Of a DNA stretch of 33,651 nucleotides, positions 555-28,141 are shown piece after piece (positions within the stretch are counted from its first letter, which is position 1; each line of letters starts with the position of its first letter). The position numbers and the translations under genes were made by a program. Source of the DNA: Candidatus Aenigmatarchaeota archaeon (GTDB lineage: Archaea > Aenigmatarchaeota > Aenigmatarchaeia > GW2011-AR5); the NCBI GenBank assembly GCA_043803505.1, contig JAZDJX010000035.1:1-33651 (forward strand), read 5' to 3'. Under the pieces are notes generated by a model that was given only the letters and a program-made list of their open reading frames with translations, had not been told where the DNA came from and made no database searches.

Positions 555-1364
555 TTATCTTACAATTTCCACGTTTGCTTTTTCCCTTACTTGGTATGAA
601 TAATCCAAGTCAATGGCTACACTATAAGTCACATATGGGCTGATGGCAGATATACTAGCCCTGTCTAAATTGAGTTTGCATGTAATCCTTGAAAATTTTT
701 TTTCTATAGCATTAAGCTCGTCAAAACTTTCGCATTCTATTATGTTGCTGTTATCCCTTATACCCAAATCCGTGTTTTTTATAGGTCCTACAAACCCATT
801 GCCGATATTTTTTATTGTTAAATAAATATACGTCTCCCTGTTGCGGACAACAAGCGGCAGGCCATCGCTGAATTCAACATCAAGGGCAATATTGCTGTCG
901 CTGTAAGAATATGATTTTGGTTTTGTCTGTATTTTGCCTATACGTCTGTTGTATTCATTCTCTGAAATTATCTCAACGGTTTGTATGGCGCTTAATGTTG
1001 CATCAAAACTTGCTTTTGTCTGTATTTCAGACGTTATACTATTCTGCTCTATTTTTTGCGGGGCAACCAACTCACATATCATGCTCTTCAATTCACCTGG
1101 CTTCATTTCTGTCAGTTGCATCTTGCATTCTTCCTTTTTATCCAAAATGCCTGTTTCAAACACTTCTATATCGATATTTCTGTATGCTTTCACATCATTG
1201 TTCATAACATCAACAAACAGATTCATTGGTTTGCCCTGGAAAACCTTTTCAGGATCTGGCTGAAGGCTTATTTCCAATCCCTTTCCACCAAACGTAGAAA
1301 CGCATGCGCCCAGAAAAATCAAGATAGCTAGAAAAAGACCGCTTTTATGCATCTGAAAAATCAT
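555..1364 (-). CDS. Secreted lipoprotein-like CARDB-type surface protein
   Basis: The track frame starts at TTG 1370. ATG 1364 or ATG 1352 (MHKSGLFLAILIFLGAC) is more plausible. It has a signal peptide with lipobox-like LGAC, a CARDB-like strand YIYLTIKNIGNGFVGPIKN, and a C-terminal motif AIDLDYSYQVRE shared with the neighbouring gene. Confidence 0.7.
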   Translation of the reverse strand: MIFQMHKSGLFLAILIFLGACVSTFGGKGLEISLQPDPEKVFQGKPMNLFVDVMNNDVKAYRNIDIEVFETGILDKKEECKMQLTEMKPGELKSMICELVAPQKIEQNSITSEIQTKASFDATLSAIQTVEIISENEYNRRIGKIQTKPKSYSYSDSNIALDVEFSDGLPLVVRNRETYIYLTIKNIGNGFVGPIKNTDLGIRDNSNIIECESFDELNAIEKKFSRITCKLNLDRASISAISPYVTYSVAIDLDYSYQVREKANVEIVR

Positions 1365-1462
1365 TTTCAAAACACCATATTGATTTCAGTTTTGAATTGA
1401 GATGCACATGAATACTATTTTTTATTGTTATGTAGGGCATCTCATCTCGTATTTTTAACATT

Positions 1463-2464
1463 TTAACGCGGGCTTATCTTCACACTTTCCGAGCCGCGCA
1501 CTTCATATGTATAATCCAGTGTAGCTGTTATATCATAAGACTGAAAAGGCACGGTTATTGGTTCTGGACTGACTTCAAACCTGAGTGATGTCTTTGTTTC
1601 GCCTTTGTAAAGAGAAATGGGCTGTTGATTTGTCCATACATCCAAGTCTTGTTCTGCTTCGCCACCAAAGGGTATTTTGGTGGAATAGTCATTATTAAAT
1701 ATCTTGTCGCTATGTTTTGAATTCAAGATTTTTGGAATTTTTATTGTCATGGAACCAATTGGTATTACTGACCCCTCAATTGTGCCGGCTTCGCTGCCTG
1801 TTTTCTTTATTTTGAAGTTTATCACAGAAGTATATCCTTCAAGCATGTAAGGCGCGCCTACAATCTCAGCATCTATTTTCACAGGTCCAGAGCCATGAAT
1901 CTTTGAAATGTCTATTGTTGTTTTTGCTCCAGCGCGCTGGCGTGCAAGCACTTCTTCCATGTCGACAACAGGAACTATGAAAATCAATGATGTATCATAG
2001 TCATAATTTACCTTGAAGTTAAGCTTTGTCGGCGTTTCAAGGTCGACTATATCAGTTTTGCTTGGTGCCTTTAGCTTATATGTTATGACCTTCTCATCAC
2101 CCGGAGGCAATTCACACACATGACCTTCATAACAAATGTCAGGTATGCACTTGCTTCCAGCTGAATTACATAGGGTTCCCTCCCTGTCCTTGAATGTCGG
2201 TGCATCAAAAAGGCTGACAGCAACATTTTCTGCCGGTTTCTGGTCATCCTTGTTTTCAATGGAAAAAAAGAATTCAATATCTCTATCAGGCAGCATTGGC
2301 GATGTCGGTATTGTTTGTACGTTTTTTATTACTACACTATCTTTTGGTCCTTCCTGGTTGATGATTGTATTTATGTTAAGCACGTCGCCACCGAAGATAT
2401 TTGGTAGACCAGTACATGCTGTCACAAGCACAATCAACGGAAGAATTATGTAATAAAGCTTCAT
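1463..2464 (-). CDS. Secreted lipoprotein-like CARDB-type surface protein (paralog of 555..1364)
   Basis: The track frame starts at GTG 2473. ATG 2464 gives MKLYYIILPLIVLVTACTG, a signal peptide with lipobox-like VTAC. CARDB-like segments are FFFSIENKDDQKPAENVAVSLFD and INFKIKKTGSEAGTIEG. It ends with ATLDYTYEVRG. Confidence 0.7.
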   Translation of the reverse strand: MKLYYIILPLIVLVTACTGLPNIFGGDVLNINTIINQEGPKDSVVIKNVQTIPTSPMLPDRDIEFFFSIENKDDQKPAENVAVSLFDAPTFKDREGTLCNSAGSKCIPDICYEGHVCELPPGDEKVITYKLKAPSKTDIVDLETPTKLNFKVNYDYDTSLIFIVPVVDMEEVLARQRAGAKTTIDISKIHGSGPVKIDAEIVGAPYMLEGYTSVINFKIKKTGSEAGTIEGSVIPIGSMTIKIPKILNSKHSDKIFNNDYSTKIPFGGEAEQDLDVWTNQQPISLYKGETKTSLRFEVSPEPITVPFQSYDITATLDYTYEVRGSESVKISPR

Positions 2465-2553
2465 CAAAATCACATTCTAATATGTTTATTAACATAACCG
2501 ATATTAAAAAGTTGTTTTCAATTGGTATTCATTAGATAAAGCAGGAGATAACA

Positions 2554-3393
2554 GTGTTTCAGGACTTTTTTCAGACATATTATATTGACCCGATAAAATA
2601 TGGAACAGGATACAATATTGTCAATACATTGACCTATGCTATAATTCTTATTCTTGCTGCCTTTGGCACATACAAACTGCTGAAAAAAATGCAGATAAAA
2701 ATCGACAAGAAATTCTTTTTTGCTATAATGCCATTCATTGCGCTTGGTGGCATGTTGCGGGCTTTTGAAGATTTATCAGAGACAATTGCAGCTGCAAAAA
2801 ATCCCTTTCTGATAACACCGTTGATTTATTTCACAGTATTTGCAATAGCTTTGCTATCCCTCATCGTGTCAATAATTGTCAGACGGTATGCAAAGATAGG
2901 CTATCACAAAACATGGTTTTCTATTGGCACTCTGTCATGCATCGTTGTTTTGTTGTCAATGGCAATGAATGCCAGACAAATTCAGCCAAATGCGCTGCTG
3001 ATTATGGCAGGCATATCAGTTATGTGGCTTGCTGTGCTTTATGGTGTGAAGCTGGTAACGTCAAAAACAAGGATGAAAGGCTTCATGAGCACAGAAAATT
3101 TTTTTCTTCTTTTTGTTCATATGTTTGACGCTACAACAACCTTTACCGCCCTGCAGTTTTTCCCGAATTATTTTGAGCAGCATGTTTTGCCAGGTTTCTT
3201 TATCAACATGTTCGGGCCTGCAGTAATATTCGTTCTCAAATTTGCGATTGTCGGTGCTGTTCTTTACTTTCTCGATAAAGATTTGAGCAAGCCGCAAGAC
3301 ATAGAAAAGCGCAATTTCTTGAAGATTGTCATTATGATTCTTGGTCTTGGTCCTGGGCTGCGTAATTTCTTCAGGCTGGTGTTGGGCGTGTGA
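2554..3393 (+). CDS. Polytopic membrane protein (possibly archaeal DUF63-like)
   Basis: GTG start with AGGAG at 2543-2547, 6 nt upstream. About 8 hydrophobic helices. The N-terminus YYIDPIKYGTGYNIVNTLTYAIIL matches my recollection of the DUF63 family; this cannot be verified here. Confidence 0.7.
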   Translation: MFQDFFQTYYIDPIKYGTGYNIVNTLTYAIILILAAFGTYKLLKKMQIKIDKKFFFAIMPFIALGGMLRAFEDLSETIAAAKNPFLITPLIYFTVFAIALLSLIVSIIVRRYAKIGYHKTWFSIGTLSCIVVLLSMAMNARQIQPNALLIMAGISVMWLAVLYGVKLVTSKTRMKGFMSTENFFLLFVHMFDATTTFTALQFFPNYFEQHVLPGFFINMFGPAVIFVLKFAIVGAVLYFLDKDLSKPQDIEKRNFLKIVIMILGLGPGLRNFFRLVLGV

Positions 3394-3458: not shown

Positions 3459-3502
3459 ATTATCGGTGTATTAATTACTTCAAAGTAAGTAAAAATAATG
3501 TG

Positions 3503-5110
3503 ATGATTATGAAAAAAGGATTTAGACTTTTCAAAAACTTTGAAGAAGAATCAAAGACGGAAAAAGATTTAGATACATCGCCAAAATTACCACAAGAATA
3601 TTTAGATTGGAGGAAAAATAGAAAATCGTTAGGGCATATACCAAGACCGATAGAATATTTAAAGAAAATGCCAAAATCAGAAAAATATTCTGCACTTTCA
3701 TTTTTAGGAATAACCGCACTAGCGTTCTCGTTGTCATATCTTCATCCATTTTCACAATCCAAAAAAACAGTAGCATTGCAAACAAAGCCCATAGTTGCTG
3801 AAGAAAGTGTCGCTGGTGGATATAGAGATTCATCGGAATATCCTACTACTGATGACATGGTTGCTACTCTTGGAGATACCGCAGCTTTAGATACATCGAA
3901 GATTGCCGTTGAAAATATACCAATAAACCAATCATCAGCAGCTTATGATACTGCAGCCATCGATACTACATCGAAGATTGCTATTGGAGACACATTGACA
4001 TATCCTGCTGCAGAAGGACAATATATATTTAAGAAAGGTGACAAGGCCGAAAAAATTATAAAAAATCTTTATCCTGACCTGAAAACCCCTAAAAACATAC
4101 GTGACATGGTAAATTATTTGGCAGAATTAAATGCATCAGGATTTAACAGAAAGCATTTTCTTGTAGACAATAGAACTGTTGTAGCAGAAAAGGATTCAAC
4201 AGGCATTACTGTTCGCCGTGTTTTAGAAAAACCTGATGGTGAAAAATTAGACGCAATATTTGTTGGAGACACTTTGAATTATGTGTTGGTAACACCGCCT
4301 TTAGCAGTGCCAATAAACCAATCACCAGCAGCTTATGATACTGCAGCCATTAATGTTCCAGCCGCAGATACGTCTGCAAAAGCAGCTGCCGATACATCAA
4401 TCAGTTTTACAGAAGCCTATTTCGATACAGCAGCTTCCGACTCATTATTGCCTGATGGAGTGATTTACGTATTCAAGAAAGGTGACAAGGCTGAAAATGT
4501 TATAGGAAAAATTTATGAGTTAAAAACCCCAAAAGAAAAGCGTAAAATGGTAAACTATCTTGCAAATCTGAATGCACAAAGACCGAATAGAAAGCATTTT
4601 CTTGTAGACAATAGAACTGTTGTAGCAGAAAAGGATTCAACAGGTCATGTTATTTATAGTGTTTCAAACAAACCTGACGGTGAGATGTTTGATGTGATAT
4701 TTCCAGGGGACACATTATCTTTACCTTATCCTACAGACATCGATACTACAGCCTTTGCTGTCCCAGCTGTAGATACATTATCTCATCCCGTAGATGTTAA
4801 TAAAATATATAGTTCACCTGTAAAATCAGATAGTATAAAGGTTGATACAACAAAATCGATAACATCGTCTGTAAAACCAGATAGCACAATATCTTCATAT
4901 TCAACAAAAAACGGAGACGCTTCTTATGCATCTGCTGCAGACAAAAACAACGATCATTATAAAGCTGCTTATGGAAAAAATCATGCAGATGTTATGAACT
5001 CATACAATACGTTTGTTTCACAGGGCAAGAGCGTTGAAGATGCATACAGGCTTGCAGTTGGCATGAATGAAACAAAATGGAATGCTGCACTTAATCCTAA
5101 GAACTTGTAA
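3503..5110 (+). CDS. Membrane-anchored surface protein with an internally duplicated ~130-147 aa module (LysM-like ends)
   Basis: Start is ambiguous (GTG 3500, ATG 3503, ATG 3509). One TM helix (YSALSFLGITALAFSLSYL). Two copies of PINQS.AAYDTAAI...Y.FKKGDKAE..I...Y..KTPK..R.MVNYLA.LNA...NRKHFLVDNRTVVAEKDSTG...KPDGE..D.IF.GDTL. The tail is Ser/Thr/Asp-rich. Confidence 0.8.
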   Translation: MIMKKGFRLFKNFEEESKTEKDLDTSPKLPQEYLDWRKNRKSLGHIPRPIEYLKKMPKSEKYSALSFLGITALAFSLSYLHPFSQSKKTVALQTKPIVAEESVAGGYRDSSEYPTTDDMVATLGDTAALDTSKIAVENIPINQSSAAYDTAAIDTTSKIAIGDTLTYPAAEGQYIFKKGDKAEKIIKNLYPDLKTPKNIRDMVNYLAELNASGFNRKHFLVDNRTVVAEKDSTGITVRRVLEKPDGEKLDAIFVGDTLNYVLVTPPLAVPINQSPAAYDTAAINVPAADTSAKAAADTSISFTEAYFDTAASDSLLPDGVIYVFKKGDKAENVIGKIYELKTPKEKRKMVNYLANLNAQRPNRKHFLVDNRTVVAEKDSTGHVIYSVSNKPDGEMFDVIFPGDTLSLPYPTDIDTTAFAVPAVDTLSHPVDVNKIYSSPVKSDSIKVDTTKSITSSVKPDSTISSYSTKNGDASYASAADKNNDHYKAAYGKNHADVMNSYNTFVSQGKSVEDAYRLAVGMNETKWNAALNPKNL

Positions 5111-5136
5111 AGCCGAAAAAATTTTTGGGTGTTAAA

Positions 5137-5550
5137 ATGAGTAACAAAAAAGTCAGGACAGCTCTTGATGGATATGAAAGACAACTTTTTCCTGAGAAAT
5201 TAGACGAATTAAATAAAGTTTATGATGAAGTTGGGTCTAATGGATTTGCACTTGAAAAATCGGGTACAATAATTGACGGTTATGAACTAAGAGATAGACC
5301 AACTACAAAAGATAGATATACATGGTTCTGGGGACTTCATTTCAGGACTGAAAAAGGAAAAATAGCAACATTATTTCCATGGGCACAGGACTGGGATAAA
5401 AGAGATGGAATTCAATTGGATAGGTCTATTGCAATTTATACAAAAGGCAAAGTTGATACACAAGATGTAGATAGTCTTATTGAAAAACTCTACCAAGGGT
5501 TTCTTGTGGAGAGGAAAAAAGAAACTCCAATAAGTCTTCAATCACAGTGA
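5137..5550 (+). CDS. Hypothetical soluble protein
   Basis: 137-aa ORF from ATG 5137 (the track lists TTG 5125). No motif recognised. Composition looks coding, and it converges on the giant gene. Confidence 0.55.
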   Translation: MSNKKVRTALDGYERQLFPEKLDELNKVYDEVGSNGFALEKSGTIIDGYELRDRPTTKDRYTWFWGLHFRTEKGKIATLFPWAQDWDKRDGIQLDRSIAIYTKGKVDTQDVDSLIEKLYQGFLVERKKETPISLQSQ

Positions 5551-5620
5551 TTTTGAATTCTTGAATTTTTAAAATATATTATACTAGTAATAACTCACAG
5601 CTTATGATTTAAGCATCTTA

Positions 5621-8600
5621 TTATCCACTACCAAAATGTTTGTCAAGCAAATTTTTGTAACCCCCGACATCATTATTTTTGATATTTTCTACATAATCGT
5701 AAATATCATTTGTACATCCTAGTCCATTATATGCACGGAGCGCAGCATCCATTCCATCATAATGTTTTGGAGGCTTACCAGTGCAATCTTGGTATCCATC
5801 GCCAGGTACATTATAGTCTAATCCACCATTTGCATACTGTCCTTCAAGTTTCTTCAGCCACTGTACGCCAAGCCATATGTTACAATCTACGTCATAGGAT
5901 GTTTTTTTACCTGCTTCACAATTTGCAGAATATATCATCCCGCACTCTACATCCTGATTGCTTTTTGGTGTCTTATAATATTTGCTTTTGCATTCGCTCA
6001 AACTGCTATATGGGTTATACCATGCTGGATGTACTTTTTTATTCAGCTGCATGACGCCAAAGCTGCTTCCATCATAGCTCATAAGTATGTTTGTTTCCGG
6101 ACATGTTTTCCACAATTCTGCAACCTGTTTGCATGAGCCAGCTTTTCTTTGTCCGGCAACAGCACAACAGTGTCTGAATCCACTTTCCTGTTGTACGAGT
6201 TTCAGTATAGTTTCTGTGTCTTCTCTTGAAAACCCAGTAAGTTCTGCAGCAGCAATAACATTTTCTATAATATTATCTCCTGTTACAACCTCTTTCGATA
6301 CGCAAGCCCCTATCTTCTCAACATTGTTTTCAACCCTTTTGGCGTTCGGGTCCCACTGGCATGGCAGCCCGCATACTCTACTTGCATCCCCACATTGTTC
6401 ATCGCTCAGGAAATTCTCGCACTTGGCGTTTGCGCAGGATTTGCACTCTCCAGGAAGCATCGGATGTTCAATGAAATAGCATTTTGCACCTTTCATGCTT
6501 TCGCATTTGCTTCTGGTGCATGGCATTATCCCTTTTCCGCAGCTTTCACATGTTTTTTCATCAGCATCAGCATAAGGGCCGAGAGGCGGTGTGACAAGTA
6601 TCTGCTTGTCCTTCATCACATTGACTTCGAACTTTTCCATGCTCGCTGTTACAAGTCCTGTCTTGACATCCTGCACAGCAGCTGTATGAAATTTGCACGT
6701 GAAGAAAAATATTGACTGGAATTTGTACTGGAGTATTTCTATTGCCTTGTCTTCATCAGGCAAAACAGTGCAGGTTACATCTTCCTTTTTGTCATCCGTA
6801 AATTCACATGAAACCTTTCCTGTGCAGTCCACTTTTTTGTCATCATTCCCTTCAGTAAGAAATGTGCCGATAATGCTCGGGAAATGAAGTAATATCTGGT
6901 CGCCTTTATAGAGCCTTATCGTTGCATCAGGCCTTGTGTTAAGAACAGAAATAAGCAATATGGCATTCTTGTTGCCTTCCAGTGGCTGCGGCCCCACATT
7001 CATGGAAATCTGCGCAGGCGTTGACTTGCCTACAGCACCAACAGGGCGGTATACAGTCTTTCCTTCAGATTCTCTTCTCTTTATTTCATCCCTTGACATC
7101 ACTTCAACGAAAATCGAGCTGTCTGTTGAGTATAGATATGTCATGTTGACACTGACCTTTGCAAATCTGACTTCAGCCTGCCGCTCTTCCTGCAAAGACA
7201 GCGCAAGAAAGCCTTCATATGTGATTCTGTCGCTCGCCTCTGTTGGAATATTAAATTTTTCATTTTTATCTATCTTTACATTTTTTTCCTCGCAGAATGT
7301 GTTGCAGCTGGCGCTGACCCTTATGTCTTTTGCTTCATAATCCTTGCCCTCATTTTTTATTACAGTGATAACAGAAAATTCCTCCCAGCCTGGCACGCTC
7401 TCAGGAAGTGCATCTATGCTCATAAACTCAAGCGCCTTGGGGTAATCCAGTGGATTCTCTGGCCTTACATTTCTCATCTGCTGTCGAGCATAAAACTCAG
7501 TTGGGTTTGTCGCGAGGAGCCACACATCACCGACTGCGCCTTTCAGGGCATTGAAGGCAATGGAAACCGGAGCCTTTACTTGTTCCTTGATAATCTGGTA
7601 ATAGCCTGAATACGGGCCGAGCGCAACGTAGCCGAAAACAAGCACCACAACAGCAAGTGTCCTAACGCTTTTGTAGCCGCCGACCTGGTAAATCTGGAAA
7701 ACGCCTACGAACAGGAATAATATCAGGCCGCCCAGAACAAAGAACCATGTGTTGCCTATGTTTGCCTGGGTAAGCCCGAACGAATACATGAAAATTATCA
7801 CAGCATACGCTAGCATTGCGCCTGATGCAAGATGCGTTATAAAGTCAAATGGCTGTTGTACAGCCTCTATATTTATTATAAACAAGATGACAGCACCCAT
7901 TGCCGGCATTATAAGCAGCAGCAGCGGATAATATCCAATCCACGAAAGCACAAAATAAAACTGAATTATGACTATGGCAGTGCCTACTGTCCACGGCCCG
8001 ATGACTATGTTTATGATGTTATGCAGCAGGTTCTCATAGACATCACCCACTGTCATCATACCGCGGCTCATGGACTTAAGAAAGCGCAATCCCCTAAATG
8101 CAGTTGTTCTGCCCCTTGTAACAAAATCCTCGGCTATTTCACTGGCATAACCTTTCAGTTCGTTTTTAAGGGCTTCTTGATCATCTGAATTAAGTGGAAT
8201 TTTCCAGCGTCTTGCAACGCCTATTGTAACAGTTTCTGCCTTGTCTTCAAGATATTTTTTGAGTTGTGCAGATGCTGCATTCAGGTCATTGTTAAAATTT
8301 TTTTCAAAATCGTCCCGTGCCTTAATAAATTCACTTAATATAATACTTTCCTGTTTCATTGCATTCAGCATAGCCGGATCTATAGCATTGGCACCACCTG
8401 CCGCGCTTTCGTGCTTGCCAACCTGGTTTAGCATGTCCATTGAATTCATGCCACTTCCTTTCCATAACCCGTGTTGCTTCCGCATAAGCCTTTTCAATTC
8501 TTTTTCTGCGTCCTTTGCATTTTTTTTCAATCCCTCTAAACGCACAACCTCTGTACCTTTTTTGCCAATTTTTGAGTTGGCGTATTTCAGATTAAAGTCC

Positions 8601-10114
8601 CATTCAAACAGCCTTCTAAATTCTGCCTGTGCATAACCATCAAGAATGCGCTTGCCTTTGTTTATCGCAGAACGAAGATGGGGATTGTCAACATCAACCC
8701 AACCTTCTTTTGTCTTCATTTTTCCATGTTGGGCATGTTCTGTATCCCTTTCAATCTTCCCTTTCAGCAGGCTTGTGCGCAGCAATCCATGCGCAGTGTC
8801 GCCTGCTCCTTGCGCCCCGCCTTGATAAGGGCTTCCAATACGGGGGCGGTCAGTATGTACTACATCATCATATTTTTTATAAAAAGCTGTTATCTTCATA
8901 TCTTTATCTTCTATAGTAACAGTCCTTTTTCCCTTTTCTCCACCATCTTCCCATTTCTCAAAAACCCATAATATTTTTTTCCCATCTAAATGTGATTTTG
9001 GAACTTCAACTTCATATGTTGTATTTTCTATAGCTGGATGAATGTAACGAGTTCGTCCAACAATTTGTTTATCTATTGCTACCTTAACACCATCGATTGG
9101 TGTTGAATCAATAATAAGATTAAGTGTTTCAAAATATGCAGTAATTGTCATGAGTTCAACAACCTGCACATATCTTCTTGGGTCTGTAGAGCCATCATCC
9201 CATTTTGAAAATCTGTATTTAATATATGCACTGCCTTTTCGAAATGTTTTTTCAAGCTCAAGAACCTCGACTAAAAGTGTATCACCTTTCTTACACAGTT
9301 CACGTGTCGTAGTTACATAAGGTTCGCCTTTTTCATTCTTTTCTTTATCGTTTATTTTTATTTTAACACCGTGAAACGGTTGTGATACAACCTTAAGTGA
9401 CACCTCACTTTCATGGCCGGATGTTTTGTACACAGCTGTAATTGAATGATTCTGGTCCATAATTATCTCATAATATGTGCCGTCAGCTGCACCACTCCCA
9501 ACCGACATTCCTGATCCAACATTTTTGTTATCCAGTTCCCAGTGGTCAAATACAGATCCAGGATTTGGCATTTGCTTTATAGTTACACTTTTATTTGGTG
9601 GATATGAATGGCTGGTGTACGCAGATGGTGTTGTTATACCCGCTTTTTTTGGATGCACAGCCACAGCTAGAACATACCAGTCAGAACTTCCTTTATCCTC
9701 AGTTTTCCCAGGGGGCAAGGCATATTTCCACGGCTCACCAGCCGTCAAAAGCTTTCTTTCCGGTCCAGGCAGTAATTGTTTTCTTTCAGGTCCAGCCGTC
9801 AAAAGCTTTCTTTCCGGTCCAGGCAGTAATTGTTTTCGTTCAGGACCTGTTGTCAAAAGTTTTTGCGAACCTGAATCTCCAATAAAAATGAATTGTTTTC
9901 CACAATGGTCACATTGGTAGACATGTCTTCTTGGTGGATTGTAATTTGTTGGAGTCCGTATATTCATGTTGTATAAGATTCCAGGTCCGCCGCTGTCGCA
10001 GTCCGGGCAATCAATGCCTTCCAGTCTCGCCTCAAGGCCGGTTTTTCTTGTTACCCTTTCGACAGTATGTTCTTTATTTGTGATGTAGTCGCGGATTTTC
10101 AGTTTTTCAGCCAT
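5621..10114 (-). CDS. Giant (1,497 aa) five-TM surface protein: zinc ribbon + repeats / 5 TM / CARDB-like + Cys-rich + SLT-type lytic transglycosylase domain
   Basis: A 4,494-nt uninterrupted ORF in AT-rich DNA. Segments read from the translation: aa 36-71 CPDC...CDHC; aa 84-126 GPERK(Q/L)LL repeats; aa ~145-413 three beta-rich repeats ending F..W[ED][DN]G...ITA[VFY][YF]; aa 440-690 charged helical region; aa 700-835 five hydrophobic helices; aa ~905-1175 CARDB-like (VITVIKNEGKDYEAKDIRV); aa 1188-1252 Cys-rich; aa 1283-1485 the SLT motifs QQESGF, SSFGVMQL, NIWLGVQWL, ALRAYNGLG. Confidence 0.85.
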   Translation of the reverse strand: MAEKLKIRDYITNKEHTVERVTRKTGLEARLEGIDCPDCDSGGPGILYNMNIRTPTNYNPPRRHVYQCDHCGKQFIFIGDSGSQKLLTTGPERKQLLPGPERKLLTAGPERKQLLPGPERKLLTAGEPWKYALPPGKTEDKGSSDWYVLAVAVHPKKAGITTPSAYTSHSYPPNKSVTIKQMPNPGSVFDHWELDNKNVGSGMSVGSGAADGTYYEIIMDQNHSITAVYKTSGHESEVSLKVVSQPFHGVKIKINDKEKNEKGEPYVTTTRELCKKGDTLLVEVLELEKTFRKGSAYIKYRFSKWDDGSTDPRRYVQVVELMTITAYFETLNLIIDSTPIDGVKVAIDKQIVGRTRYIHPAIENTTYEVEVPKSHLDGKKILWVFEKWEDGGEKGKRTVTIEDKDMKITAFYKKYDDVVHTDRPRIGSPYQGGAQGAGDTAHGLLRTSLLKGKIERDTEHAQHGKMKTKEGWVDVDNPHLRSAINKGKRILDGYAQAEFRRLFEWDFNLKYANSKIGKKGTEVVRLEGLKKNAKDAEKELKRLMRKQHGLWKGSGMNSMDMLNQVGKHESAAGGANAIDPAMLNAMKQESIILSEFIKARDDFEKNFNNDLNAASAQLKKYLEDKAETVTIGVARRWKIPLNSDDQEALKNELKGYASEIAEDFVTRGRTTAFRGLRFLKSMSRGMMTVGDVYENLLHNIINIVIGPWTVGTAIVIIQFYFVLSWIGYYPLLLLIMPAMGAVILFIINIEAVQQPFDFITHLASGAMLAYAVIIFMYSFGLTQANIGNTWFFVLGGLILFLFVGVFQIYQVGGYKSVRTLAVVVLVFGYVALGPYSGYYQIIKEQVKAPVSIAFNALKGAVGDVWLLATNPTEFYARQQMRNVRPENPLDYPKALEFMSIDALPESVPGWEEFSVITVIKNEGKDYEAKDIRVSASCNTFCEEKNVKIDKNEKFNIPTEASDRITYEGFLALSLQEERQAEVRFAKVSVNMTYLYSTDSSIFVEVMSRDEIKRRESEGKTVYRPVGAVGKSTPAQISMNVGPQPLEGNKNAILLISVLNTRPDATIRLYKGDQILLHFPSIIGTFLTEGNDDKKVDCTGKVSCEFTDDKKEDVTCTVLPDEDKAIEILQYKFQSIFFFTCKFHTAAVQDVKTGLVTASMEKFEVNVMKDKQILVTPPLGPYADADEKTCESCGKGIMPCTRSKCESMKGAKCYFIEHPMLPGECKSCANAKCENFLSDEQCGDASRVCGLPCQWDPNAKRVENNVEKIGACVSKEVVTGDNIIENVIAAAELTGFSREDTETILKLVQQESGFRHCCAVAGQRKAGSCKQVAELWKTCPETNILMSYDGSSFGVMQLNKKVHPAWYNPYSSLSECKSKYYKTPKSNQDVECGMIYSANCEAGKKTSYDVDCNIWLGVQWLKKLEGQYANGGLDYNVPGDGYQDCTGKPPKHYDGMDAALRAYNGLGCTNDIYDYVENIKNNDVGGYKNLLDKHFGSG
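9741..9848 (-). repeat. Tandem 54-bp coding repeat (two units, each two 27-bp sub-repeats) encoding GPERK(Q/L)LL(P/TA)
   Basis: Units 9741-9794 and 9795-9848 are identical over their first 43 nt and differ at a few 3' positions. Confidence 0.9.
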
Positions 10115-10619: not shown

Positions 10620-11732
10620 CTAGACCTTTACCTTCACGCCTATGTTCTTCACATAGAATCCTGAGTCATCCAGGCCCTTTATGATAAGAGAATTTGTGCC
10701 CTCTTTGACATCCTGCTTGCTGAAATAAAATGTATATGACTTTTCCTCAGCCCTGTCAAAGTCGCTGTAGGTTGTTTCTGCTACCCTGACAGAAAAGCCA
10801 CCGCTCTTTTTCACTCTCGGTACATCAAAGCTTATGATGCCAACCTTCATGCTATTATATTGTGCATTGCTGATTCTGAATTCTGTAATAAGTTCAGTTT
10901 CTATGTTTTTGACGAAGAATATATTGATAAATGCATTACCTGAAATCTTTGTATCTTTTCCTGGCTTGAATAGAAGAACATTATTGTCACGTACCATGTC
11001 AGATTTTTTTAGTGTCAGTGTCTGCATGTCGCGCACTGCGCCTGAATATATGGTCTTCCCGTTAAGCTCAAGATTCAGTATGCCAATGCTTTGATTCAAT
11101 CTTAGAACTATGTTGCCTTCCCTGAAAGTATCATATTCCACGCCAAGAGAAAATTTGTAGTCTGTTGTGTCCTGATATGTCGAAAAAAGAGTGATACTGG
11201 CATCTGTGAGCCCGTACAGCGACGGAGCCCACAATCTTATACCAGAGCTCATGGTTTCTATTTCAACAAGCATATCATCTGACAATCCCTCGCTTATTGA
11301 AAATTCATATCTGCCTGGTTCTAAAATCTTCTCCACTGCTGTTTTGCCGTTTATCCTGATCACAAGCGGCGCATAAGAGTTTGTCCTGTTGACAGAAAAA
11401 CTTATCTTCATCTCGTTTATGTTCCCGCCAATCCTGTATACAATGCTGCTTTTTCCTGAGAGCAGCCCGTTGTATACATCCTTGTTTCCCAATTCAATCT
11501 TTTTTGAATCAGCAAGATCTGATGCCTTAAACTCTGTTTTCAGCGTATCCGCCCTGTCAGCGCTACTCATACCAACAAATTGTGAACCAGCCGTATCACT
11601 GCTGATGTTCAACGGTACATATCCGCCGTTTCCTGCGCCAATAGCTGTGTCAATGCTGACACCGTTGGTTATAACAATCAATGCAGCGAGTATAACCAGC
11701 CCTGCTACAAGAAATGCTATAAATTCATCCAT
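10620..11732 (-). CDS. N-terminally anchored surface protein (M-D-E-F N-terminus)
   Basis: The track starts at GTG 11741. ATG 11732 gives MDEFIAFLVAGLVILAALIVITNG, a hydrophobic helix directly after an acidic residue. The remainder is beta-rich. It lies upstream of and co-oriented with the giant gene. Confidence 0.7.
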   Translation of the reverse strand: MDEFIAFLVAGLVILAALIVITNGVSIDTAIGAGNGGYVPLNISSDTAGSQFVGMSSADRADTLKTEFKASDLADSKKIELGNKDVYNGLLSGKSSIVYRIGGNINEMKISFSVNRTNSYAPLVIRINGKTAVEKILEPGRYEFSISEGLSDDMLVEIETMSSGIRLWAPSLYGLTDASITLFSTYQDTTDYKFSLGVEYDTFREGNIVLRLNQSIGILNLELNGKTIYSGAVRDMQTLTLKKSDMVRDNNVLLFKPGKDTKISGNAFINIFFVKNIETELITEFRISNAQYNSMKVGIISFDVPRVKKSGGFSVRVAETTYSDFDRAEEKSYTFYFSKQDVKEGTNSLIIKGLDDSGFYVKNIGVKVKV

Positions 11733-11887
11733 ATTAATCACTCAAAATATATTACTTTAGAGTAACTATAATACATAGATTTTTAAAGCTTTCCTTTCCA
11801 TGAAAACAAAAGGGTTAAAAACTTTTGAGGCTTATGTTAAATACCATAAACAATCAAAAAATTCAGCAAAACTGGAGGTGTAAAAGA

Positions 11888-14648: not shown

Positions 14649-15215
14649 TTATTCTATAGGAACCTCTTTGCCGCATTTTCCATTCAGCCTTACACCGCCA
14701 ATCAATCTTTTTACACACTGCTTGACAAATGTGTTTTTATCTGCGTTAATGTCATGTGAAAGATCCACGCAAAGTTCGTTGCTCTTGAAGAATCCTATAA
14801 AAAATGATTCATTTGTGCCCCATCCTGTATTGGAATAGACAGTCACAGTCATGCTGAAAACATTTTTTCCATCCTTCTCAAGTTTAACGGTGTCGCTGCC
14901 TGCAATTTTTTCCTTGAAGAATACAACTGGTATGGCATCAACATTTTGAGTTCCATCATAGACTATTCCGAGGTTTGTGATTAAAATTTCAAACTTGAAA
15001 TTGCCTTCATAGTTTGCTATCTCATCGGCTGTCGCCTGTATGCATGTAAGATTTATTGTACCCTTATATTTTGGCGAAAGTGTGAAAAACATGTCTTCAT
15101 CGGGCTTTCCGAGCCATTTGTAAACAATGTCCTTGCCAGCTGCGAAAATCGTAATCACTAAAGCAAGCGTAATAATCATTGTAAGAAACTTGAACGTCGT
15201 GGTAATTTCAACCAT
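14649..15215 (-). CDS. N-terminally anchored pilin-like/surface protein (M-V-E-I N-terminus)
   Basis: MVEITTTFKFLTMIITLALVITIFAAGK is followed by a beta-rich 160-aa domain with 4 Cys. It belongs to the minus-strand operon. Confidence 0.7.
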   Translation of the reverse strand: MVEITTTFKFLTMIITLALVITIFAAGKDIVYKWLGKPDEDMFFTLSPKYKGTINLTCIQATADEIANYEGNFKFEILITNLGIVYDGTQNVDAIPVVFFKEKIAGSDTVKLEKDGKNVFSMTVTVYSNTGWGTNESFFIGFFKSNELCVDLSHDINADKNTFVKQCVKRLIGGVRLNGKCGKEVPIE

Positions 15216-15245: not shown

Positions 15246-16202
15246 CTAAACAGGGCAGTTATCGCATGTCACCTGTTCAGGTAGCACCCTGAAAGAATAT
15301 ATACCCAGCAACATGTCATAGCATCTCTTGTCAAAATCCACCATATCTCTTTCCCAGCAGTCATTGACACCTTCAGCGGGTTTTTTCCATAAGGATATTA
15401 ACATTTCATCACCAGCATCTTTCCATTCGCCGCCCATTTCAATGAGTTCAATGATGAATTTAGGTTCCCTTACCTCGCATCCTTTTTCAGGGTATGTAAA
15501 ACCTTCAAGCGTTATTTTAACCTCACCTTTACACAAATCAAAACTTTTTTCGCATTTTGACATGTCTTCTCCCTGTTTATCGCAATCAATACTTTTATCC
15601 TTCAGACGAAACCACGACTCAATGTATTTCACAGCTTTGTCATCTTTGCATTCAATAGTCATGACAGCAAGGCATTCTACAATGTCTTTTTCAATGAATT
15701 CCAGATTATTCAGTTGTTTTAGCCTCATGACAGCAAAGCTGTCAAGCACAATACCCTCACCCTCGCTCAGTTTTCCTTGGTATAATGCGCTTCTTTGTGT
15801 TCCTATCCGTCTGTTGGTTGTCAGCGGTGCCTCTTTGCTTCTTAGAGTAAATTTTCCAAGATAAAAGGCAGCATCATTTTTTTTGAGATTTATTATATCT
15901 GGATTATGCACTTTGGTGCCTTTGAACAGCATAGAAACAGTTGCTTCTGTGTCCTGTGAAGACTTGAAGCCTGCTGAAAGATTTATTTCATATGAATAAT
16001 CCGATACAAATCTGCTAGCTTTCATATTTGCTGATGGAGTGCCGACAAGCTTGACAATGCCTGAAAATTTCTCTACAACACCTATTGCTTTTGGGTCTTT
16101 GATTGGCTGATTAAAGCCCTCGGCAAACAGGACGGTTGCAATGACGAGAACAATAAGGACTGTTATGATACTTACCAGAACTTTTTGAATTATCTCAACC
16201 AT
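15246..16202 (-). CDS. N-terminally anchored pilin-like/surface protein (M-V-E-I N-terminus), Cys-rich
   Basis: The track starts at TTG 16217. ATG 16202 gives MVEIIQKVLVSIITVLIVLVIATVLF. The C-terminal part is Cys-rich (about 12 Cys). Confidence 0.7.
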   Translation of the reverse strand: MVEIIQKVLVSIITVLIVLVIATVLFAEGFNQPIKDPKAIGVVEKFSGIVKLVGTPSANMKASRFVSDYSYEINLSAGFKSSQDTEATVSMLFKGTKVHNPDIINLKKNDAAFYLGKFTLRSKEAPLTTNRRIGTQRSALYQGKLSEGEGIVLDSFAVMRLKQLNNLEFIEKDIVECLAVMTIECKDDKAVKYIESWFRLKDKSIDCDKQGEDMSKCEKSFDLCKGEVKITLEGFTYPEKGCEVREPKFIIELIEMGGEWKDAGDEMLISLWKKPAEGVNDCWERDMVDFDKRCYDMLLGIYSFRVLPEQVTCDNCPV

Positions 16203-16206
16203 TACA

Positions 16207-16374
16207 TCAGCCGCCAAATATTCTCGCTATAAGGTCCATCAGTCCGAAACCAGTGCGCGAGGCATGGCTTGACATGTCAGCATAGGCATTGCTCGCCACC
16301 ATAATCATGACAGCAGCGACTATGATAGCCAACAATATTTTATATACAGCAGCAATCATAATTCCCTTTTGCAT
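16207..16374 (-). CDS. Small pilin-like protein (55 aa), not in the ORF track
   Basis: My translation: MQKG|IMIAAVYKILLAIIVAAVMIMVASNAYADMSSHASRTGFGLMDLIARIFGG*. It has a class-III-like KG followed by a hydrophobic helix. Its stop lies 4 nt before the next ATG. Confidence 0.45.
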   Translation of the reverse strand: MQKGIMIAAVYKILLAIIVAAVMIMVASNAYADMSSHASRTGFGLMDLIARIFGG

Positions 16375-19920: not shown

Positions 19921-20754
19921 ATGGGAGTAATACTTCCGGTAATGTCGCTGACGCTTGTGCTGGTAATAGGCATATCAAGCCTGCTTGTCGGCATGATAGG
20001 CTACATTATATTTTCTCTGCCGTCAACAGGAGGCGGAAAAACAACATATAGTTTTGAATTTCTTGGCATGATTTCAAGGTCATTCTCAATTGCAAATATA
20101 ATTTCTGATGTGAATATTTATGATAGAACATTTCTTGAGCAGGCAATAGAATCAATGGCAACAGGCTCCACAGAAAATGGGAATGCAAATCCAATGTCAA
20201 TATCAGTTTTTATTGACAAATACGACATGCGTTTTTATAGCATTTCAATAGAAAAAGGTGGTAATGAAATATTTAACACAGACAATCTACCAAGAAAATG
20301 TGGAGGAAATGGCATATGTGTTCCTCAGTATGACGATGTAGAAAATTGCGGTGTCGGCAGGATAAAAATAGACGACAAAGAAACGTGCAAGAAATCAGAG
20401 CTTTGTTGCGAGGAAAATGAAAAAGCATATACGGAAACCAAAAATTCTTACACTATAGTCAAATGTGGCATAGGTGGAATCTGCACAACTGGTTATCATA
20501 TGGAAACGCTTACAGAAGCAGGCATAGAATATTCAGAAAGTTTTTGCGAGCCAGGCAGGATACCTATCGAAGAAAAAAGTAATGAATGTCATGTTGCCAA
20601 TAATGGTAATACACCTTTGTGCTGCAGGCCATTGACATTAATTACAAGTGCTTCAGAAACAGGAAATCTGGCACAGATTCCACTGCTTTTCAGGGGAATA
20701 AATGCACCCGAGCCATCATTTGGTTATGTGAATGTTATTACAGATGATAGATGA
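19921..20754 (+). CDS. N-terminally anchored surface protein with two Cys-knot-like repeats (KCG..GIC...GRI.I...C...LCC)
   Basis: The track frame starts at 19861 inside the previous gene. ATG 19921, 4 nt after the upstream stop, gives MGVILPVMSLTLVLVIGISSLLVGMIGYIIF. The two Cys modules are at aa 126-163 and 181-235. Confidence 0.7.
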   Translation: MGVILPVMSLTLVLVIGISSLLVGMIGYIIFSLPSTGGGKTTYSFEFLGMISRSFSIANIISDVNIYDRTFLEQAIESMATGSTENGNANPMSISVFIDKYDMRFYSISIEKGGNEIFNTDNLPRKCGGNGICVPQYDDVENCGVGRIKIDDKETCKKSELCCEENEKAYTETKNSYTIVKCGIGGICTTGYHMETLTEAGIEYSESFCEPGRIPIEEKSNECHVANNGNTPLCCRPLTLITSASETGNLAQIPLLFRGINAPEPSFGYVNVITDDR

Positions 20755-22595
20755 TTGTAATGAACAGCAATAAAGGTGATGCTAACATAATGCTCGCATT
20801 GGTCGGCATAATCTTCATAATTTTCATGCTTATCATTGTGCTGTCATCAGCATTTGGCGAGAACATAAAAAGGCACAAGATGATTTTTGACGAAGTCGGC
20901 ATAATGAAAGCAAAAAATACATTTGTTCTGTTAAACAGAAGCCTTACCGAGACATGGCGCATCTCATCAGCACAGGCAATTTACAATACAGGCGATGAAA
21001 GCATCGGCTGCGGGGCTGATGGTGATTTGGCTAAGGGCGATTTGGTTTATGGCTATTGGTATCAGTATAATCCTGCATCTGAAAAAACACCTTCATGCGC
21101 TGATAAAAATCCAGATGGAACAAACGATTGCAAGCTAAATGATGACGGAACAAACCGCTATCCTTATCCGAGATTGTCAGATGAAAAATACAATTATGCT
21201 GGTTATAATCCAAGAATATGTTTTCCACATGCCACACATCTTGTAAGTTATCTGGATGAAAAATTCAAGCCATACAAAAACATATCAAAAGAATTCGAGG
21301 CCAATAGTGCTAATGTAAAAATATCAAATATAAACAACAAATTCATCCTCACAGAAAACAATAAACTTGTAAATGATGTAACACAGGACATTTCCATAGA
21401 GCTTGGAAAGACAACAATAAAATCAAGCCCAGAATATAAAATAATTTTTGGTCCAGAGGTCTCAGACATTCTCTATGGTGGATGGATGGCAACACAACTT
21501 TTCCTGTCATTCTCAGATTCAATAACAGATGACAAAAATTTTTATAATGATGAAAGGACAAAAGATCCAGCCTATAATTATGGTTTGAGATATCAGAGTA
21601 TTTATGATGACAATCCCGATACAAAGGACTCATATGAAAAAAGAATTAAAGACGAAATCATCAACAAATCAATACTGCTGGAAAAAACACCACAAGCCAA
21701 GTTTAGTATTGATTTCAATGATTTTGAACTCATAGCGCACAATGAAAGCTATAAAATTTTAAGTTCCGTTACCCCGCCTTCAGGAACCACATATAAAACT
21801 GGTTTGATTCTTCATTATGATGCAACAGTCAGAATAACAGGAGAAAAAGGTATTGAAGCTGCAAATTGCATTGAGCCTAGCGATGACACAAAGAGCACCC
21901 TAGATGAAAAAGTAAATGGTGTTGACAATGCATGGCAGTTTGGAGATAAAAAATATACAAATGAAGAAATTGTCCAGCTTGTTGAGGCAATAATGCAGGT
22001 GAAGGATGGGCGATTTAATATGGATAGTAACAGGGAATCAAGCAACATAAAAGCAGCTATTGAATATATCCACGATTTATTTGATAAGTTGAAAAATGAT
22101 GCAAACAATGAAGAGAATATGATAAAGTTCGTTATCGCTGCATATGATTCTAACTGCGGTGAAGACTGCGTCAATAACGCTCGTGATATTGCAAGGGATG
22201 CCGGAAAAACAGACATATGGAATTACAATGAGATAAGCTCATTTTTGCCAGCAGAAACGCAGAATTATGTTGCAAAGGTACTCGGAAATTACATATGCTA
22301 CGGCGGCTTTGTAAGTTCCTCAGCAAATTATTATTTCAACGAGGAAAAGAATAAATTTTACAAAAAACCGTTTTCTCTTGTATTCAAAGTAGAGGACTAC
22401 CTGCCTGCCATTGATTGCAATATGCCGGCAACATATTTTTCATATATTACTGAAAATAGAAATGACCTGCTCTGCTGTGACGGCGTATTCTACTCTTGCA
22501 ATGTAGAAGGATTAGGAGGCAATAATATTCCTGTTGGCAATTCAGCTGATTGCATTGACGGTCAGTTTCAATGCAATGATAATGGCTTCGCCTAA
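20751..22595 (+). CDS. Large (614 aa) pilin-like protein with a degenerate SLT-like module
   Basis: ATGA overlap with the upstream stop. N-terminus is MIVMNSNKG|DANIMLALVGIIFIIFMLIIVL. At aa ~403-515: LVEAIMQVKDGRFN...NIKAAIEYIHDL...VIAAYDSNCG...LPAETQNYVAKVLGNY. The C-terminus is Cys-rich with LLCC. Confidence 0.8.
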   Translation: MIVMNSNKGDANIMLALVGIIFIIFMLIIVLSSAFGENIKRHKMIFDEVGIMKAKNTFVLLNRSLTETWRISSAQAIYNTGDESIGCGADGDLAKGDLVYGYWYQYNPASEKTPSCADKNPDGTNDCKLNDDGTNRYPYPRLSDEKYNYAGYNPRICFPHATHLVSYLDEKFKPYKNISKEFEANSANVKISNINNKFILTENNKLVNDVTQDISIELGKTTIKSSPEYKIIFGPEVSDILYGGWMATQLFLSFSDSITDDKNFYNDERTKDPAYNYGLRYQSIYDDNPDTKDSYEKRIKDEIINKSILLEKTPQAKFSIDFNDFELIAHNESYKILSSVTPPSGTTYKTGLILHYDATVRITGEKGIEAANCIEPSDDTKSTLDEKVNGVDNAWQFGDKKYTNEEIVQLVEAIMQVKDGRFNMDSNRESSNIKAAIEYIHDLFDKLKNDANNEENMIKFVIAAYDSNCGEDCVNNARDIARDAGKTDIWNYNEISSFLPAETQNYVAKVLGNYICYGGFVSSSANYYFNEEKNKFYKKPFSLVFKVEDYLPAIDCNMPATYFSYITENRNDLLCCDGVFYSCNVEGLGGNNIPVGNSADCIDGQFQCNDNGFA

Positions 22596-27730: not shown

Positions 27731-28141
27731 ATGAAAGGTATTTCACCGCTTATTGCATCTGCCTTGCTTATCGTCATCACGATAGTTATAGCAGGTCTGA
27801 TAGCAAACTGGGCAACAACGCTTTCAAAAGGACAACTCGAGGAAGCCAACAAACAGACAGAATGCGCAAAAGGAACCATCGATATAATAAGTCTAGGTTA
27901 CACAGATGCTGTTAATAACAAGAATGTTACTGTAAGCTTGAGAAATATAGGCAAGACAGCTCTTACAGGAATAAGGGCAACATTGATTTACGACAATGAA
28001 ACATACGACAAAGAAATAATTGCATCTCTGAATTCGCTTGAAGCAAAAACCGAGAGAATAGATTCTGAAAGAAAGCCATTGAAGATCGAGATTATTTCTT
28101 TAACATGTCCTCAAAGCCCTGTTTCACGTACATTCCCGTAA
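27731..28141 (+). CDS. Archaeal type IV pilin (Pilin_N / DUF1628-type N-terminus)
   Basis: MKG|ISPLIASALLIVITIVIAGLIANWATT closely matches the archaeal pilin/flagellin N-terminal consensus (G-[IV]-SPVIA..LLI.IT...A). An Ig-like C-terminal part follows. Confidence 0.85.
   Translation: MKGISPLIASALLIVITIVIAGLIANWATTLSKGQLEEANKQTECAKGTIDIISLGYTDAVNNKNVTVSLRNIGKTALTGIRATLIYDNETYDKEIIASLNSLEAKTERIDSERKPLKIEIISLTCPQSPVSRTFP

Follow-up and report, generated by a model that had tools for sequence, protein, structure and literature searches.

Introduction

Surface-exposed enzymes that cleave murein are the main genomic argument that some DPANN archaea live on bacteria or attack them; to our knowledge, neither has yet been demonstrated by experiment for any DPANN archaeon. 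Here we describe a gene found in a 33.6-kb stretch of DNA (contig JAZDJX010000035.1, the whole of which is called the window below). It encodes a membrane protein of 1497 residues, whose C-terminal domain is a very divergent relative of the SLT lytic transglycosylases, which belong to glycoside hydrolase family GH23. The closest described proteins are the large extracellular murein-transglycosylase proteins of Pacearchaeota and Woesearchaeota, known as 'fam00969' (Castelle 2021, PMC8204110, which cites Rinke 2013 and Castelle 2015 on them). Such proteins are also reported for Woesearchaeota of an Arctic lake (Vigneron 2022, PMC9723730) and for DPANN genomes from oxygen-deficient zones (PMC10936187), and they are discussed for Pacearchaeota in general in a study whose own vent-chimney genomes yielded none (PMC11537232). 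In the sections of these four accounts considered here, the hypothesis that the proteins serve to attack or attach to bacteria is common to all. For other classes of enzyme, experiments have demonstrated the killing of bacteria by archaeal peptidoglycan hydrolases (PMC12352652).

The protein described here shares several features with the fam00969 type, as far as the sections considered describe it. It is encoded by a DPANN genome, as judged from marker genes in the window and from synteny with a metagenome-assembled genome (MAG); it is longer than 1000 residues; it carries an SLT/GH23 domain that is predicted to lie outside the cell; and the same role at a cell wall can be proposed. It differs in that the published cases are from Pace- and Woesearchaeota, while the closest genome to the present one is from Aenigmatarchaeota, and in that this copy is too divergent for single-sequence annotation of the Pfam or CAZy kind. 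The likeness was drawn from the description of fam00969. The protein is a divergent further case of the published DPANN transglycosylase proteins, and the idea of an attack on bacteria is already in print. In the sections surveyed, which are not an exhaustive sample of the literature, we found no mention of a Cys-rich insertion running through a clade, of a polytopic anchor with a conserved cytoplasmic region, or of a link to Aenigmatarchaeota.

Our reading, to which we give a probability of about 0.65, is that this is a polytopic surface protein of the DPANN type with a GH23 domain at its tip, which is likely to act on bacterial peptidoglycan.

Homology of the C-terminal domain

The C-terminal domain was compared by exhaustive phmmer search with a library of 1.84 billion representative proteins, relatives being counted at E<1e-3. 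This identified 63 relatives, 19 of them at E<1e-10, which together with the query make a family of 64 sequences. The domain parts of all 64 were aligned, and this alignment is referred to here as A1.

When the family sequences were scanned singly, 53 of the 64 matched the Pfam SLT family PF01464, the best with an E-value of 7.5e-13. At least eight relatives (P0013, P0018, P0020, P0021, P0029, P0032, P0036 and P0040) exceed the Pfam gathering score of 21.3 bits, and the query is linked to such relatives by phmmer E-values of 1e-12 to 1e-7. For example, P0013 (29.6 bits against the Pfam model), P0018 (26.7 bits) and P0029 (40.5 bits) are found from the query at 1.4e-12, 2.3e-11 and 2.5e-9 respectively. 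The query itself falls below the Pfam score. The profile match proposed as a check in the initial annotation of this DNA thus fails for the single sequence, which is tied to the SLT family through the relatives that pass.

A profile hidden Markov model (HMM) made from A1 was run against all PDB sequences. It identified MltC (3.6e-4 and 9.4e-4), Slt70 (0.03) and EtgA, with the g-type and c-type lysozymes ranking below these. In the alignments, the ES of the family coincides with E478-S479 of Slt70 and with the ES of MltC, and GIMQ is matched to GLMQ and CNIxxG to NINIG. Taken together, the profiles, the transitive matches and the fold searches described below establish the homology of the domain to the SLT/GH23 superfamily, as the initial annotation had supposed.

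Other searches added little. A word-indexed homologue search with the SLT domain found nothing, and the same search with the family profile found only two proteins, on short contigs with uninformative context. An exact look-up of the full protein found no record. A scan of viral contigs for relatives of the family returned none, and there is no sign that the gene is a viral or proviral lysin.

Motifs and insertions

The stretch originally annotated (5660–6268) corresponds to residues 1283–1485, approximately, of a domain that is here assigned to residues 1277–1497. The SLT motif set that was described in it (ES, GVMQL, NIWLGVQWL and AYNGLG) is present, in order, at the residues of the 1497-residue open reading frame listed in Table 1. 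The candidate catalytic residue lies within QQESGF (residues 1308–1313), with E1310 encoded by nucleotides 6185–6187. Both residues of the Glu-Ser motif are at least 90% conserved across the 64 sequences, as are G, Q, N and Y of the other motifs and five Cys columns. The family 1 transglycosylases Slt70 and MltC (PF01464, GH23) have the motifs ES, GLMQ, N-I..G..L and AYNxG in the same order and have the lysozyme-like fold that is predicted for the query, and NIWLGVQWL aligns with NIDTG and NINIG of MltC and Slt70. In the near-invariant columns of the alignment we saw no second carboxylate.

The query differs from Slt70 and MltC in its spacing. It had been described as matching SLT domains in spacing apart from one insert of about 25 residues with four Cys, between ES and GLMQ. 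That insert is indeed found, as RHCCAVAG...WKTC (residues 1314–1338, with C1316, C1317, C1328 and C1338), but there are three expansions rather than one. In the family-profile alignment, the distance from the catalytic Glu to G(V)MQ is 43 residues in the query and 15 in Slt70, and the distance from GVMQ to NI is 59 residues as against 33. A third insertion of around 20 residues lies between the NI..G..L helix and AYNG. The three sum to approximately 75 residues, and the query domain contains 11 Cys.

The first insertion is not peculiar to this protein. The family consensus in this region is ES-x-F-R-H-C-C...G......C.......C.....L-S..G-S-S-x-G-I-M-Q, and the HCC of the pattern 'ES-x-x-HCC...C...C' is present in 44 of the 64 sequences. 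The distance from ES to GxMQ is usually around 40–45 residues (median about 42) in the family, compared to 15 in Slt70 and likewise in P0043, a full-length orthologue from which the Cys-rich insert is absent. The Cys-rich insert is a conserved hallmark of the clade. The five conserved Cys columns suggest disulfides, which would fit an extracellular location. The second insertion, of some 30 residues following GVMQL, is shorter or absent in most relatives; many of the phmmer alignments are split at this point, leaving query positions 99–131 unmatched, and the same is seen in two further alignments.

Predicted structure

AlphaFold2 was used with alignment A1 to model the SLT domain. The model has a mean predicted local distance difference test score (pLDDT) of 87.2 and a predicted TM-score (pTM) of 0.86. 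The helix at model positions 38–52 ends exactly on E1310-S1311. The Cys-rich insert is modelled as short β-strands with pLDDT 86–97, and because of these high values we take it to be, in the model, an ordered extension of the β-lobe.

The model was compared with known structures using Foldseek. Against the PDB, the matches are Slt, LtgA, the T7 core protein gp16, MltF, g-type lysozymes and a GH23 chitinase, with probabilities up to 0.96. Against BFVD, the top 30 are almost all LT_GEWL or SLT phage proteins, with E-values from 1.7e-3 and probability 1.0. A lysozyme-like fold, as was expected for this domain, is thus favoured by a confident model and by its transglycosylase and lysozyme matches, weak in score as these are, and the position of Glu1310 in the substrate cleft is a prediction from the alignment.

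Among the wider GH23 group, goose-type lysozymes share the fold class and the position of the catalytic Glu, and they give weak profile and fold matches. These are much weaker than the matches to transglycosylases, and the near-invariant columns of the family show no second acidic residue like the Asp residues of g-type lysozyme. A different comparison is with VirB1, EtgA, TraG/PrgK, T7 gp16 and PRD1 P7, in which an SLT-type domain is likewise part of a larger device that penetrates the envelope; EtgA, the T7 core protein and the PRD1 transglycosylase are all among the profile or fold matches. The present gene differs from these secretion, conjugation and phage transglycosylases in that no secretion or virion genes adjoin it, and in that there is no similarity outside the SLT domain.

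Organisation of the whole protein

The gene is a single unbroken frame of 1497 codons. Its domains are listed in Table 1.

Table 1 Positions in the window of the gene, its domains and its motifs, from the N-terminus of the protein
Feature	Position	Strand	Basis
Whole gene, 1497-residue multidomain membrane protein (stop codon included)	5621..10114	(-)	Open reading frame list and translation
CxxC...CxxC zinc-ribbon-like motif, N-terminal, predicted cytoplasmic (C36, C39, C68, C71)	9902..10009	(-)	Translation
54-nucleotide in-frame tandem repeat, 2.4 copies, 90% match, encoding GPERKQLLPGPERKLLTA	9737..9863	(-)	Tandem Repeats Finder and translation
Conserved helical, coiled-coil-like region, predicted cytoplasmic, residues ~470–698	8021..8707	(-)	Aligned across P0005, P0033, P0043 and P0058
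Five predicted transmembrane helices, residues ~699–839	7598..8020	(-)	Hydropathy scan; kept in orthologues
Juxtamembrane motif DVWLLATNPTEWYARQQ.NVRPE, predicted ectodomain side	7457..7528	(-)	Invariant columns in 7–8 orthologues
Ectodomain stalk, two tandem β-sandwich domains, residues ~895–1175	6590..7432	(-)	AlphaFold2 secondary structure, pLDDT ~80
Cys-rich linker module between stalk and SLT domain, residues ~1189–1265	6320..6550	(-)	Orthologue alignment
Divergent SLT/GH23 lysozyme-like domain, residues 1277–1497, predicted extracellular	5624..6286	(-)	Family alignment, profiles, model
Predicted catalytic Glu1310-Ser1311, C-terminal end of helix	6182..6187	(-)	Alignment and model
Cys-rich insertion (RHCC...C...C), residues 1314–1340, β-lobe between ES and GVMQ	6095..6175	(-)	Translation, family, model
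GVMQL (GLMQ equivalent), residues 1353–1357	6044..6058	(-)	G and Q conserved to 90% or more; matched in the alignment to GLMQ of MltC and Slt70
Second insertion, Cys-containing helical stretch, residues ~1363–1395	5930..6028	(-)	Alignments
NIWLGVQWL (N-I-x-x-G-x-x-x-L helix), residues 1412–1420	5855..5881	(-)	N invariant; G and L at least 90% conserved
AYNGLG (AYNxG equivalent), residues 1461–1466	5717..5734	(-)	Y invariant; in 'ALRAYNGWGC', R, G and C conserved to 90% or more

The topology is predicted to be N-in, C-out, with the SLT domain extracellular, because an Arg/Lys-rich segment precedes the first transmembrane helix, and because of the distribution of Cys, of which there are none in residues 275–935 and 28 in residues 937–1497. 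The SLT domain would thus be tethered to a protein with five transmembrane helices, unlike Slt70 and MltC, which are periplasmic or lipoproteins.

The N-terminal 700 residues or so contain a weak, sub-threshold Pfam match to a β-repeat. The zinc-ribbon-like motif is not conserved in the orthologue alignment, and the GPERKQLLPGPERKLLTA repeat also lies within the non-conserved part of the cytoplasmic N-terminus. The helical region that follows has no significant match in Pfam or NCBIfam. The juxtamembrane motif, DVWLLATNPTE(F/W)YARQQ.NVRPE, is nearly invariant and is common to all full-length orthologues; it is poorly modelled, and it matched no family.

A model of residues 835–1268 (pLDDT 70) contains two helices, two β-sandwiches and a poorly resolved Cys-rich module. 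Foldseek analysis of the stalk gave only generic matches to tandem Ig-like domains, for example integrin alpha legs, the C-terminal barrels of transglutaminase and the CNA adhesin, and their TM-scores were low. The Cys-rich linker contains at least 15 Cys, some in columns that are invariant across the orthologues, and is modelled with a pLDDT of only 60–70.

Four relatives are full-length orthologues (P0005, P0033, P0043 and P0058), and three more are fragments (P0016, P0037 and P0064). The full-length orthologues align from residue ~420–480 through to the C-terminus, with E-values of 1e-136 to 4.5e-199. P0005, which is encoded in the Ca. Aenigmatarchaeota MAG (JBAZQV010000018.1; positions 3603..9380 of locus L003), has in addition a 'putative esterase' domain (PF00756, E 3.9e-22) on the C-terminal side of the SLT domain. 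This suggests that the tip of the ectodomain can carry a second hydrolase, as might be expected of an exposed array of enzymes.

Two architectures recur in the wider family. Around 20 of the 64 have a charged N-terminus, 5–8 transmembrane helices, an ectodomain of some 450 residues and then the SLT domain. In others the SLT domain comes after just one N-terminal anchor, which in many cases looks like a class III (pilin-type) signal. The relatives are thus predicted to be membrane-anchored or secreted. Pfam and NCBIfam scans of the protein and of nine polytopic relatives found no VirB6/TrbL or other machine domain.

Organism and gene context

The window encodes class I LysRS, FEN1, DUF63, GatC, a polyprenyl synthase, an archaeal pilin and a PilB/VirB11-family ATPase, together with many unannotated secreted proteins, and has a G+C content of about 38%. 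A scan of genomes with a six-member alignment matched one locus in GTDB and two in metagenomes, one of the latter being a duplicate. The only GTDB genome matched was the Ca. Aenigmatarchaeota MAG with the P0005-type orthologue. In both this MAG and the window, a gene for a DUF63 membrane protein lies downstream of the SLT gene and convergent with it (window 2554..3393 (+); L003 10169..11083 (-); 50% identity). Apart from this gene, the immediate neighbours showed no conservation between the two loci, and no other conserved neighbour was found. The relative P0013 is on a 94-kb contig that also bears TFIIB, ribosomal protein S3Ae and Kae1. The marker genes of the window, the orthologue with its DUF63 neighbour in the MAG, and the contig of P0013 make the assignment to a DPANN-like archaeon well supported, in keeping with the earlier description of the protein as archaeal. 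The closest available relative of the producing archaeon is the Ca. Aenigmatarchaeota MAG.

Cell-surface genes are numerous in the window, but none adjoins the SLT gene in an obvious operon. They include the PilB/VirB11-family ATPase (PF00437, 24498..26141 (+)) and the archaeal type IV pilin (27731..28141 (+)). Three unannotated open reading frames (10620..11741, 14649..15215 and 15246..16217, all (-)) have N-terminal hydrophobic anchors. Two adjacent frames, 555..1370 (-) and 1463..2473 (-), encode paralogous secreted proteins (BLASTP E 6e-6) with lipoprotein-like signals (…AC/…) and a common C-terminal LDY(S/T)Y(Q/E)VR, and have no Pfam match. The frame 3500..5110 (+), of 536 residues, is convergent to the SLT gene and contains an internal duplication of …KKGDKAE.(I/V)I.(N/K).Y…NRKHFLVDNRTVVAEKDSTG…; no Pfam family, LysM included, matched it at E-values up to 1. 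Ten neighbouring frames screened against Pfam at the same limit gave nothing usable.

One further frame, 20751..22595 (+), of 614 residues, has a pilin-like N-terminus (…NKG/DANIMLALVGIIFIIF…). Its match to Pfam SLT is weak and partial (E 0.0073, confined to the C-terminal half of the profile), and it also matches the PHROG 'lytic tail fiber' (1.1e-5). Judged by eye, V-K-D stands where the catalytic Glu would be expected. The frame bears no relation to the SLT family of this study, has no relative in the PDB, and was rejected as a second transglycosylase. It may be a degenerate lysozyme-like module.

Proposed function

On the basis of these observations, we suggest the following arrangement. 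Around 700 N-terminal residues, comprising the zinc ribbon, the repeats and the conserved helical region, would lie in the cytoplasm, and the five transmembrane helices would anchor the protein. The C-terminal 650 residues or so would project outwards, with the two β-sandwich domains as a stalk, then the Cys-rich linker, and at the tip the elaborated, disulfide-rich SLT/GH23 domain. The stalk would serve to keep the enzyme at a distance from the surface of the cell that makes it. Glu1310, at the end of the catalytic helix, would be the sole general acid/base, and would cleave the β-1,4 bond between N-acetylmuramic acid (MurNAc) and N-acetylglucosamine (GlcNAc). As no second conserved carboxylate was seen, the chemistry is more probably that of a lytic transglycosylase, giving a 1,6-anhydroMurNAc product, than that of a hydrolysing lysozyme.

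The producing cell is an archaeon, which, unlike the bacteria that make Slt70 and MltC, is expected to have no substrate of its own, and for this reason bacterial peptidoglycan is the likely substrate. The closest characterised relatives are murein transglycosylases, and so the simplest reading is that the enzyme acts on the murein of bacteria with which the archaeon comes into contact. These bacteria could be a host, prey or competitors; scavenged wall debris is another candidate. A bacterial wall is a plausible substrate, and the partner or prey suggested in the initial annotation is a conjecture.

Several points weigh against this reading. The query SLT domain alone scores only 13.7 bits against PF01464 (E 0.048), and single-sequence searches, with the domain or the whole protein, gave no relevant match in NCBIfam, in PHROGs or in a phmmer search of the PDB. 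The Foldseek matches are also weak: those to the PDB have E-values of 0.09 or weaker and TM-scores of 0.3–0.4, and TM-scores overall, including the BFVD matches at 1.7e-3, are 0.3–0.5, which we attribute to the 75 or so residues of insertions. The geometry of the cleft around Glu1310 and the pairing of the disulfides are predictions, as is enzyme activity throughout the clade. Nothing in the window points to a bacterial partner. Finally, GH23 includes chitinases, one of which is among the fold matches, so that substrates other than murein are possible.

This last point leads to the best surviving alternative, namely that the enzyme is active on another GlcNAc polymer of an archaeal host or of the environment, such as a chitin-like polymer or an envelope glycan, the conserved Cys-rich β-lobe insertion having reshaped the substrate groove. 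The fold matches in question are to the GH23 chitinase of Ralstonia A-471 (3w6e/3w6b/3w6c), and the large conserved insertion adjoins the catalytic Glu and is part of the lobe lining the groove in lysozyme-type folds. The cultured DPANN archaea known to us have archaea as hosts, which would also fit. Nevertheless, the best solved relatives of the family profile are murein transglycosylases (MltC, Slt70 and EtgA) and not chitinases, and the full family 1 motif set (ES, GLMQ, AYNxG) is retained. Pseudomurein, for its part, has β-1,3 bonds to N-acetyltalosaminuronic acid, and we know of no GH23 enzyme that cuts them. We consider a non-murein substrate unlikely.

A second alternative is that the domain belongs to a cell-cell machine, as do VirB1, EtgA and TraG/PrgK, and that it makes a local hole in the sacculus for an archaeal pilus, bridge or channel, with the polytopic and cytoplasmic parts belonging to the machine. 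The presence of EtgA among the family-profile matches is in keeping with this, as are the large conserved cytoplasmic region of a polytopic protein, the approximately 20 relatives built in the same way (5–8 transmembrane helices, ectodomain and SLT domain), and the occurrence in the window of pilin-like proteins, an archaeal pilin and the PilB/VirB11-family ATPase. Yet this ATPase, the sole secretion-related one, is 14 kb from the SLT gene, beyond housekeeping genes such as FEN1. No genes of type IV or type III secretion system clusters (VirB4, VirB6/TrbL or coupling protein) were detected in the window, nor were they found in the nine polytopic relatives, and DUF63 is the only conserved neighbour. 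A machine of this kind is distinctly unlikely.

It might also be supposed that the domain is a catalytically inactive module for binding glycans, and that the protein is mainly an adhesin. A position at the tip of an Ig-like stalk is typical of adhesins, and the divergence from characterised enzymes is strong. Against this, the conservation of at least 90% in Glu-Ser and in all the other family 1 motifs over 64 representatives implies selection for catalysis, making loss of activity improbable. Chance resemblance of the motifs in a domain that is not lysozyme-like, to which the lack of any match for the query alone in Pfam, NCBIfam, PHROGs and PDB might point, is effectively refuted by the transitive homology, the profile-to-PDB matches and fold lists dominated by transglycosylases and lysozymes.

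A further reading may be put forward, though it is doubtful. In it, the 'ES-x-x-HCC...C...C' clade would be an archaeal invention, in which a reshaped GH23 site braced by disulfides is mounted on polytopic or pilin-like anchors, and is used to breach walls in episymbiosis or predation of archaea on bacteria, or else is aimed at a target other than murein. On the same reading, the conserved cytoplasmic and five-helix module could couple cleavage of the wall to the uptake of material, or to a signal passed through the membrane of the archaeon.

Significance

The protein extends the argument from murein-cleaving enzymes to an Aenigmatarchaeota-like lineage of DPANN archaea. It also shows that such enzymes can escape routine Pfam or CAZy annotation, because conserved Cys-rich insertions lower their scores below threshold. 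The clade of 64 representatives, with its diagnostic ES-x-x-HCC motif and its conserved Glu, offers concrete targets for expression and for assays of sacculus degradation. If confirmed, the function proposed here would refine the published hypothesis of DPANN attack on bacteria rather than open a new one.

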